Assembly (NCBI GenBank): GCA_964016885.1
Contig: OZ024759.1
Coordinates: forward strand, 37,138,001-37,202,000
DNA from: Eledone cirrhosa
Taxonomy: Eukaryota
Length of the DNA stretch: 64,000 nt
Reading direction: 5' to 3'
Shown here piece by piece: positions 4,381-5,513 of the stretch. The notes under the pieces are model-generated. The model had not been told where the DNA came from. It made no database searches and saw only the letters and a program-made list of their open reading frames with translations. Both the position numbers and the translations under genes were made by a program. Each line of letters begins with the position of its first letter. Positions within the stretch are counted from its first letter, which is position 1.

Positions 4381-5452
4381 ACACCATCGATATCCTATTA
4401 TAAATTTCTCAATCTCTAATTCTTCATAGATATGGTAGACATCACCACCAATTCCACCAGCACCACCATCATCTACCACCTACCACCCTCCCCCACCATC
4501 TACCACCACTCCACCACCACAGGACCACCGTTATTCCATCAAACCCTTCTCCAGTGGTCTTAGAGAGACAACATATGGTGGCCCCTTTCTTTCCATTCTC
4601 TTACAACAGATCCTCTCTAATGTAGTTTCAATCCCATCAAGTCTCCCTATATCAGATATAGTGGCCGGGCACTTTTCTACATAGAAACCCTTTCTACAAA
4701 CACACACATATACACATATATATATATATATATACCTGTCACTTTTTTCTTCTTTTCCTTGTCTTCCATCTTATCTATATCTCTCTCTCCTTGCTGACAC
4801 CCTGGCCTATATATATAGATATATACACACACACAAACACAATCCCCCCTCACACATACAAACAATCCCACCTCGCACACACACACACATAAACACAGTG
4901 CCCCCTCGTACACACAATACCCCCCCCCCCACTCTCATACCCACGTCTCCTCTCCACTCTCCCCTTATCTCAGGTCTATTGTTCTCCTTCTTTCGCTATA
5001 ATTCGAACCTGCGATGTCCTCCTATGGACGTCCTCTCGAGATCTTTATCACAGCAGGACAGGAAATTAATGTAGGACAATGATCTGGCTTCGTGTAACTA
5101 CCACCAGCATCAGCAGCAGCGCTACCATCACAAACAGCACCAACAACACCATCGCCACTGATACACCATCTAACACACACACACACACACACGACCACCA
5201 CCACCACCGATACACCAGCTACCACCAACACCATCAACACTACCACCTCCACCACCATCCACCAAAATCACAGCTACACCATCCACCAAATAAACAATAG
5301 ATGATAAGAACTACATGGGTCAGAGTGGCTTCTATGACTGATCTACGCATGCGCAATCCAGATACTGGGGCCAGTTAAGGAAGAACACGTATAGATACAG
5401 AAACATAAGCACGTGTACACTTATGTCTGTCTTCAGTCGTCAGAATGATTTA

Positions 5453-5513
5453 TTCATTCTGACGACTGAAGACAGACACAGCATCTGCCTTCAAGAAACC
5501 ACTGGTAAATGAA
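5453..5513 (+). ncRNA. Type I hammerhead ribozyme motif (Penelope/retrozyme type)
   Basis: Stem I ttcatt(5453-58)/aatgaa(5508-13); core CUGACGA 5459-65; stem II tgaag.caga/tctg.cttca; GAAA 5495-98; stem III ACC-act-GGU; cleavage triplet GUA, cut after 5507. First stem II pair is a C-A mismatch. Confidence 0.75.

Follow-up and report, generated by a model that had tools for sequence, protein, structure and literature searches.

A hammerhead motif with a 25-nt inverted self-copy in Eledone cirrhosa, a probable fold-back scar of a Penelope-like insertion

Why would a hammerhead motif be directly preceded by a perfect antisense copy of its own catalytic half? This question is raised by a locus in a 64,000-nt stretch of the Eledone cirrhosa genome (contig OZ024759.1; the whole stretch is referred to below as the window). 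An earlier note on this DNA had offered two answers, a built-in off-switch for the ribozyme or a scar of fold-back replication. We propose that the locus is, most probably, a dead, very short, 5′-truncated insertion of a hammerhead-bearing Penelope-like retroelement (PLE), with a 25-nt inverted self-copy that likely arose by fold-back self-priming. The features of the locus, together with two insertions of a second family that serve as internal controls, are collected in Table 1.

Table 1. Features of the hammerhead locus and of the two control insertions (X1, X4, X5 and X13 denote runs)
Feature	Position	Strand	Basis
Left flank, a different, lower-copy repeat, cut at 5424	5303-5424		25 X1 contigs match up to 5424, then diverge
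Inverted 5′-truncated 25-nt copy of 5454-5478, head to head with the direct copy	5424-5448	-	exact reverse complement; X1 contig; depth low relative to the direct copy
Direct copy of a high-copy repeat family, 5′-truncated, 3′ end approximate	5449-5545	+	depth profile; contig pieces 5449-5534 in X1, X5 and X13, and 5486-5534 in X4
Loop of the hairpin, which is also where the truncated direct copy naturally begins; fold-back point 5448/5449	5449-5453	+	two X5 contigs of other family copies start aligning at 5449
Type I hammerhead motif	5453-5513	+	predicted pairs and probabilities; descriptor match; swapped-helix-III dimer predicted
(TA)7 run at the 3′ junction, likely insertion target	5544-5557		sequence
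Control A, second family: inverted arm of 60 nt, loop of 9 nt, direct copy extended on one side by 69 nt, flanked by (TA)n on either side, CUGANGA half absent	42183-42380	+	
Control B, another member of this family (91% to A over 137 nt): inverted arm of 55 nt, ~70-nt (71) extension	39739-39921	-	

The hammerhead motif and its inverted arm

The earlier note had described the arm, 5424-5448, as perfectly antisense to 5454-5478, the two being separated by a loop of 5 nt (5449-5453). This is indeed the case, and pairing breaks off at 5423/5479. It had also given the coverage correctly in outline. In detail, five of the six 5′ nucleotides of stem I are copied, and the inverted copy also takes in CUGACGA, C5466, the full 5′ side of helix II and two bases of its loop. 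Of the window, eukaryotic DNA rich in microsatellites, 47% was masked as tandem repeat. Among perfect inverted repeats in its complex sequence with loops of up to 100 nt, the one at 5424-5478 ranks second-longest over the 64 kb. The window holds 34 inverted 20-mer pairs, while block shuffles gave none in 38 of 40 cases and a single one in the other two; the excess is far beyond chance.

A contig from run X1 (depth 7.1, no differences) covers 5285-5462, and thus runs from the left flank through arm and loop into the direct copy, of which it includes 9 nt. The arm is therefore present in the sequence data, with the caveat that X1 is possibly the assembly's own source. This caveat, and the fact that no listed piece spans the entire stretch, are what could be said for an assembly or library fold-back artefact. 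The depth of the contig is, however, similar to that of other low-depth pieces, and copies of the same build elsewhere in the window have diverged arms (87% and 98% identity), which is not expected of an artefact. We give this explanation next to no credence.

The motif fits the type I hammerhead in its predicted fold. All elements of the conserved core (C3-U4-G5-A6-N7-G8-A9, G12-A13-A14, A15.1-U16.1 and H17) are found, at 5459-5465, 5495-5498, U5506 and A5507. Three helices surround this core in the predicted fold of 5453-5513, with stem I open and pair probabilities of 0.34-0.99. Stem I (5453-5458 with 5508-5513) has 6 bp; helix II (5467-5493) has 9 bp, one A-C mismatch and a 7-nt loop; the GAAA lies at 5495-5498; and helix III (5498-5506) consists of three pairs on a 3-nt loop, inside a 9-nt quasi-palindrome. 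Cleavage is predicted after A5507 (GUA), at the position named by the earlier note. A type I hammerhead descriptor matched once in the window (core at 5459) and in none of 40 shuffles. Rfam gave no match at gathering score over the whole window, and no hammerhead family was among the 32 weak matches over 5200-5800. The miRNA and snoRNA matches in that interval, all below gathering score, reflect the perfect hairpin and were set aside. By eye, two more hammerhead-like cores (CUGAUGA, one extra base, a short helix and GAAA) lie at 58118-58142 (+) and ~40121-40146 (-); neither passed the full descriptor.

The C-A mismatch that the earlier note had pointed out at the base of stem II is real. The 10.1-11.1 pair, usually G-C, is not canonical here, with C5466 opposite A5494, and a shift to the other register, in which an A is bulged, comes at a cost of 3.8 kcal/mol. 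In other copies of the family, position 5466 is U in 1129 X13 reads, the commonest X13 variant, which pairs with the fixed A; it is A in 10 X1 contigs. In the consulted part of a hammerhead survey, a 10.1-11.1 mispair is a rejection criterion, yet one active U-U case was found (PMC3088659). Helix III is a second weak feature of the motif. Two molecules can form a helix III self-duplex through 5498-5506 (-8.2 kcal/mol, with a central C-C mismatch), and cofolding two copies gave a dimer with swapped helix III at -29.2 kcal/mol, vs. 2 x -10.1 kcal/mol for the monomers. With its quasi-palindromic helix III, the motif looks in these models like a hammerhead of the dimer type, and a solo copy would therefore probably be weak. 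Good cleavage by a short monomeric transcript is thus doubtful, given both the dimer-type helix III and the non-canonical 10.1-11.1 pair.

How would the arm affect folding? With the arm, the minimum-energy fold reaches -50.0 kcal/mol, vs. -15.2 kcal/mol for the forced ribozyme fold, a gap of ~35 kcal/mol in favour of the hairpin, and the pair probabilities of stem I and helix II are 0.0 in silico. The hairpin is predicted to form in the growing chain before the 3′ half exists, and the arm is predicted to block ribozyme folding. The claim of the earlier note that a read-through RNA would be locked by the 25-bp hairpin thus holds in silico. Its companion claim, that a transcript starting after ~5449 could self-cleave, stands only in part: stem I refolds for starts at 5444 or later, its computed pair probability being 0.003 for a start at 5442 and 0.71-0.75 for starts at 5444 (0.71) or 5446, but efficient cleavage of such a monomer is doubtful, as seen above.

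One reading makes the arm a selected cis off-switch, in which read-through RNA would be locked and transcripts starting at ~5444-5452 could cleave at 5507. The thermodynamics permit such a switch, the predicted stem I pairing changes sharply between starts at 5442 and 5444, and the arms are perfect. However, the folding block follows from any perfect 25-bp inverted copy and is uninformative on purpose. The hairpin has no release trigger, and the alternative start would be confined to a window of about 10 nt. Furthermore, single metazoan PLE-type motifs showed no detectable in vitro cleavage in the part of PMC4209133 used here, and the 10.1-11.1 mispair described above also argues against a working switch. 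Among the papers listed by a literature search, none dealt with a natural antisense switch on a retrotransposon hammerhead, judging by titles and the beginnings of abstracts, which is not proof of absence.

A dispersed high-copy family in which the arm is rare

Reads or contigs from four of 15 runs (X1, X5, X13 and X4) aligned to 5285-5800 at 80% likeness; X6-X12, with small shares, and X2, X3, X14 and X15 were outside the read comparison. Depth in X1 is summed over contigs and is not a copy number, while that in X13 is a raw-read depth. At 5501-5518, depth reached 573,213 in X1, compared to 7.1 for the locus's own contig, and 1,846 in X13. A second organism, X4, matches 5486-5534, so that the repeat family is not confined to one organism. 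The stretch 5479-5545 (~67 nt) is present on the direct-copy side only, forming a one-sided extension. Its 3′ end was placed at ~5545 by one loose end in X5 that matches the window up to this position, within a masked stretch (5535-5575). As many as 1012 X13 molecules end at 5519 (adjoining depth 1336), and the 483 loose ends found there agree only to 0.34. These heterogeneous ends fit dispersed copies.

Over the arm (bin 5429-5446), depth was 85.8, 0, 33 and 0 in X1, X5, X13 and X4, compared to 19,119, 195, 337 and 0, respectively, over the adjoining bin of the direct copy (5447-5464). Since contigs may under-represent hairpins, raw reads are the better test of how rare the arm is. The arm has at most about a tenth of the X13 depth on the matching subfamily, and part of this depth is probably due to ordinary copies aligned on the opposite strand. 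The arm is not a family trait, and it is rare among family reads. The earlier note had suggested looking for the arm in other genomic copies, and had equated an arm found only at this locus with a one-off scar; the X13 depths of 33 vs. 337 largely bear out the latter. The rarity also speaks against a selected switch. The two X5 contigs that align from the first base of the loop indicate that the loop is native element sequence, which places the fold point at its left edge.

At least one other fold-back joint was present among the 6169 aligned X13 reads, an opposite-strand joint at 5486/5486 seen in three reads with two starts. This joint would drop the CUGANGA half; it is weakly supported and could be a library artefact. 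A second opposite-strand joint, 5419/5483 (seven reads, six starts), was considered as a longer-armed allele and rejected, the simpler explanation being ordinary copies with a loop II that resembles the reverse complement of 5419-5423. These five bases belong to the flank repeat, yet they complement loop II of some family variants (seven X13 reads), while the loop of the locus's own direct copy differs. The complementarity may reflect microhomology with a second template, or chance.

Flanks of the locus and insertions of the same build

The repeat that forms the left flank is not resumed in the right flank, and the locus has no target duplication: 5370-5428 and 5540-5600 have no 6-mer in common. 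The left junction (5419-5424) has 7 nt in common with the element's own extension (5522-5528). To the right of the hammerhead locus, a third high-copy repeat (5576-5789) is found in all four compared runs, with two single-contig opposite-strand joints in X1.

The absence of a target duplication and the cut, unresumed flank repeat would also suit an arm added to an already inserted copy when host replication or repair of the DNA switched templates, unrelated to retrotransposition. The two arms match at 100% although differences separate the direct copy from other members of the family, as would be the case for a later event, and the window has other short palindromes of unknown origin (3177-3207 and 45206-45275). 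On the other hand, 5 nt separate the start of the arm from the point at which the element is truncated, and no part of the arm lies outside element sequence. Moreover, two insertions of a second family repeat this build, one of them with a target duplication enclosing both the arm and the direct copy. A later switch of template by the host is, in our opinion, very unlikely.

This second family contains the longest inverted repeat of the window (42183-42311) and has six copies by blastn, including the query. In controls A and B the order is the same: (TA)n, inverted arm, junction, direct copy, one-sided extension, (TA)n. The arms of A and B end at the same base but their fold points differ. Control B has a 37-bp target duplication (39660-39696 and 39922-39958, one mismatch) that encloses arm and direct copy. 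The full build is thus seen in two of the six copies; very short arms at 37352-37399 and 55807-55860 are suggestive only, and the remaining two pieces (57572-57626 and 19803-19830) have no arms. The one-sided extension is of nearly equal length in the two families, ~67 nt at the hammerhead locus and 69-71 nt in the second family.

By eye, A and B retain the 3′ part of a hammerhead, with GAAA, a helix of 5 bp and GUC, but no CUGANGA; minimum-energy folds did not reproduce the 5-bp helix. It is on this reading by eye that we tentatively take the second family to be a hammerhead-bearing PLE. The fold points of A and B, on the same reading, fall in helix II of a hammerhead, which may be a snap-back site.

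Since A and B have no CUGANGA half, there is nothing in them to switch, and fold-back arms evidently arise repeatedly in this genome with no ribozyme core to control. These insertions, the rarity of the arm in the family and the other joint at 5486 lead us to favour a scar over a switch among the two alternatives of the earlier note; a selected off-switch is highly improbable. It is hardly more credible that fold-back scars in which an intact hammerhead core is sequestered serve as a selective filter or have been co-opted. The copies would then be harmless on the sense strand of host transcripts, and this locus would be a switch born of a retroelement accident, with RNA cut only if transcription starts inside the loop. 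A selected switch, if true, would be a natural start-site-controlled hammerhead; nothing at the locus points to selection.

Comparison with Penelope-like elements and retrozymes

The fold-back scar finds its closest counterpart in the insertions of PLEs. According to the portion of PMC8557442 consulted, these are strongly 5′-truncated; an inverted 5′-truncated copy often directly adjoins the 5′ end, and one end has a tail of 30-40 bp. The PLE hammerhead is located in the pseudo-LTR, and some clades prefer (TA)n. Palindromes at PLE head-to-head junctions are common and have been interpreted as self-priming, and the target-site duplication is variable, often not discernible and optional (PMC3846280, in part). 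In vitro, reverse transcription by an anole PLE starts at two sites bracketing the tail, and ribozyme cleavage is dispensable for insertion (PMC11167929, as excerpted).

The locus resembles the insertion units of endonuclease-bearing PLEs (Penelope/Poseidon, Neptune, Hydra; Pen2a and Pen3a of Adineta vaga) in its head-to-head inverted 5′-truncated copy with a junction palindrome (5424-5478), its strong 5′ truncation, its one-sided extension, its hammerhead within the repeat and the (TA)n at its junction, as far as these are described in the cited parts of PMC8557442 and PMC3846280. Its high depth and heterogeneous loose ends, together with the (TA)7 at the 3′ junction, likewise agree with a dispersed repeat that inserts into AT-rich or microsatellite targets. 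The locus is, however, far shorter than those units (a 25-nt arm and a direct copy of ~97 nt), and its extension of ~67 nt exceeds the 30-40 bp published for the tail, although it should be noted that many X13 reads stop at 5519, ~26 nt before the end. Unlike those units, it has no target duplication, and no coding region was seen. None of the 150 longest of the 310 complex reading frames of the window had a Pfam match to a reverse transcriptase or GIY-YIG domain, as expected for a truncated copy; these frames gave only sub-threshold PHD and DUF6320 matches.

The ribozyme motif leads to a similar comparison. In the part of PMC4209133 drawn on here, metazoan PLE hammerheads have a long helix II and a small palindromic helix III and work as dimers; hammerheads of this kind with a small palindromic helix III occur in Drosophila, rotifers, shrimps and mosquitoes. 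The locus shares with them an intact core, a long helix II, a short palindromic helix III (5498-5506) suited to dimers and sequence variety among copies. It differs in having a stem I of 6 bp rather than 4-5, and in lacking the G10.1-C11.1 pair; in the variants seen, CUGANGA is followed by U, A or C, which faces an invariant A.

Could the parent be something other than a PLE? A hammerhead element of retrozyme-like or SINE-like type, non-autonomous and dependent on borrowed PLE enzymes, would leave a truncated solo copy with the same fold-back scar, and would differ from our preferred reading in the parent only. The very high depth over a short stretch and the lack of a coding region nearby are in keeping with such a parent. 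The 6-bp stem I is that of canonical animal type I motifs, and a preprint derives animal retrozymes from PLE pseudo-LTRs (10.64898/2026.07.22.740005, in the part available to us). In common with animal non-LTR retrozymes, as partially described in PMC7229834 and the same preprint, the locus has a type I motif, is non-coding and is low in G+C; the axolotl Amex2 retrozyme family similarly has a mismatch at the helix II base and cleaves better as a dimer. However, retrozymes are tandem repeats of 150-450 bp (PMC7229834, from the part cited), whereas tandem 150-450-bp units each with a hammerhead were not found in the window, which has a single copy, and the flanks become heterogeneous directly after 5519. 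The locus also differs from animal retrozymes in its inverted 5′ copy and in a helix II much longer than the canonical 4 bp. A parent of this kind is unlikely.

Pattern scans gave no further ribozymes of this type. A 22-nt family motif found no loci in a metagenome scan, and scans of viral contigs returned 12 and 6 loci, which on inspection contained no ribozyme resembling the family. A looser metagenome pattern returned 77 loci, none of them family-like or with a stem I of more than 4 bp, and all 77 are taken as chance. Three of these metagenome contigs (L036, L062 and L091) have in common a stable hairpin (-20.3 kcal/mol) set in a hammerhead-like core, but their stem I amounts to only 2 bp and they have no Rfam match.

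For the PLE insertion that we favour, the structure of the locus and its family context are observed, while the enzyme involved and the sequence of steps are taken from published work; the tie of the hammerhead repeat to a PLE reverse transcriptase is putative. A PLE-type enzyme would nick an AT-rich site, and reverse transcription of the 3′ repeat would proceed through the hammerhead for no more than ~97 nt before stopping just past stem I. The nascent strand would then fold back near its end and prime or template a 25-nt inverted copy of itself, and this short second copy would join the left flank, probably with loss of target sequence. Silencing of the motif by the hairpin in any read-through RNA would be a side effect with no selected role. 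The earlier note had correctly identified the motif; it was silent on membership of a high-copy repeat, on the extent of the copy to ~5545 and on the quasi-palindromic, dimer-type helix III.

The locus would add a minor case to the head-to-head insertion pattern already published for PLEs. The window provides clean minimal cases of this pattern: the extensions of three fold-backs are one-sided and 67-71 nt long, and one of the three has a target duplication of 37 bp. Collected over the whole genome, such fold-backs could serve to map fold points and help to test the still unproven self-priming model of PLE integration.

Other repeated structures occur in the window. A 70-bp palindrome (86%) beside (TA)n at 45206-45275 and a perfect 15-bp arm pair with a 1-nt loop at 3177-3207 are possibly fold-back scars. 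A frame of 76 aa at 32249-32476 (+) has a sub-threshold PHD-finger match (E 0.00028) and lies near a segment with 21-bp inverted ends (31870-31998), possibly a transposon remnant. Two minisatellites consist of a 33-bp unit repeated 12.6 times (2724-3140) and a 68-bp unit repeated 6.7 times at 99% identity, with an internal 14-bp palindrome (10561-11013).
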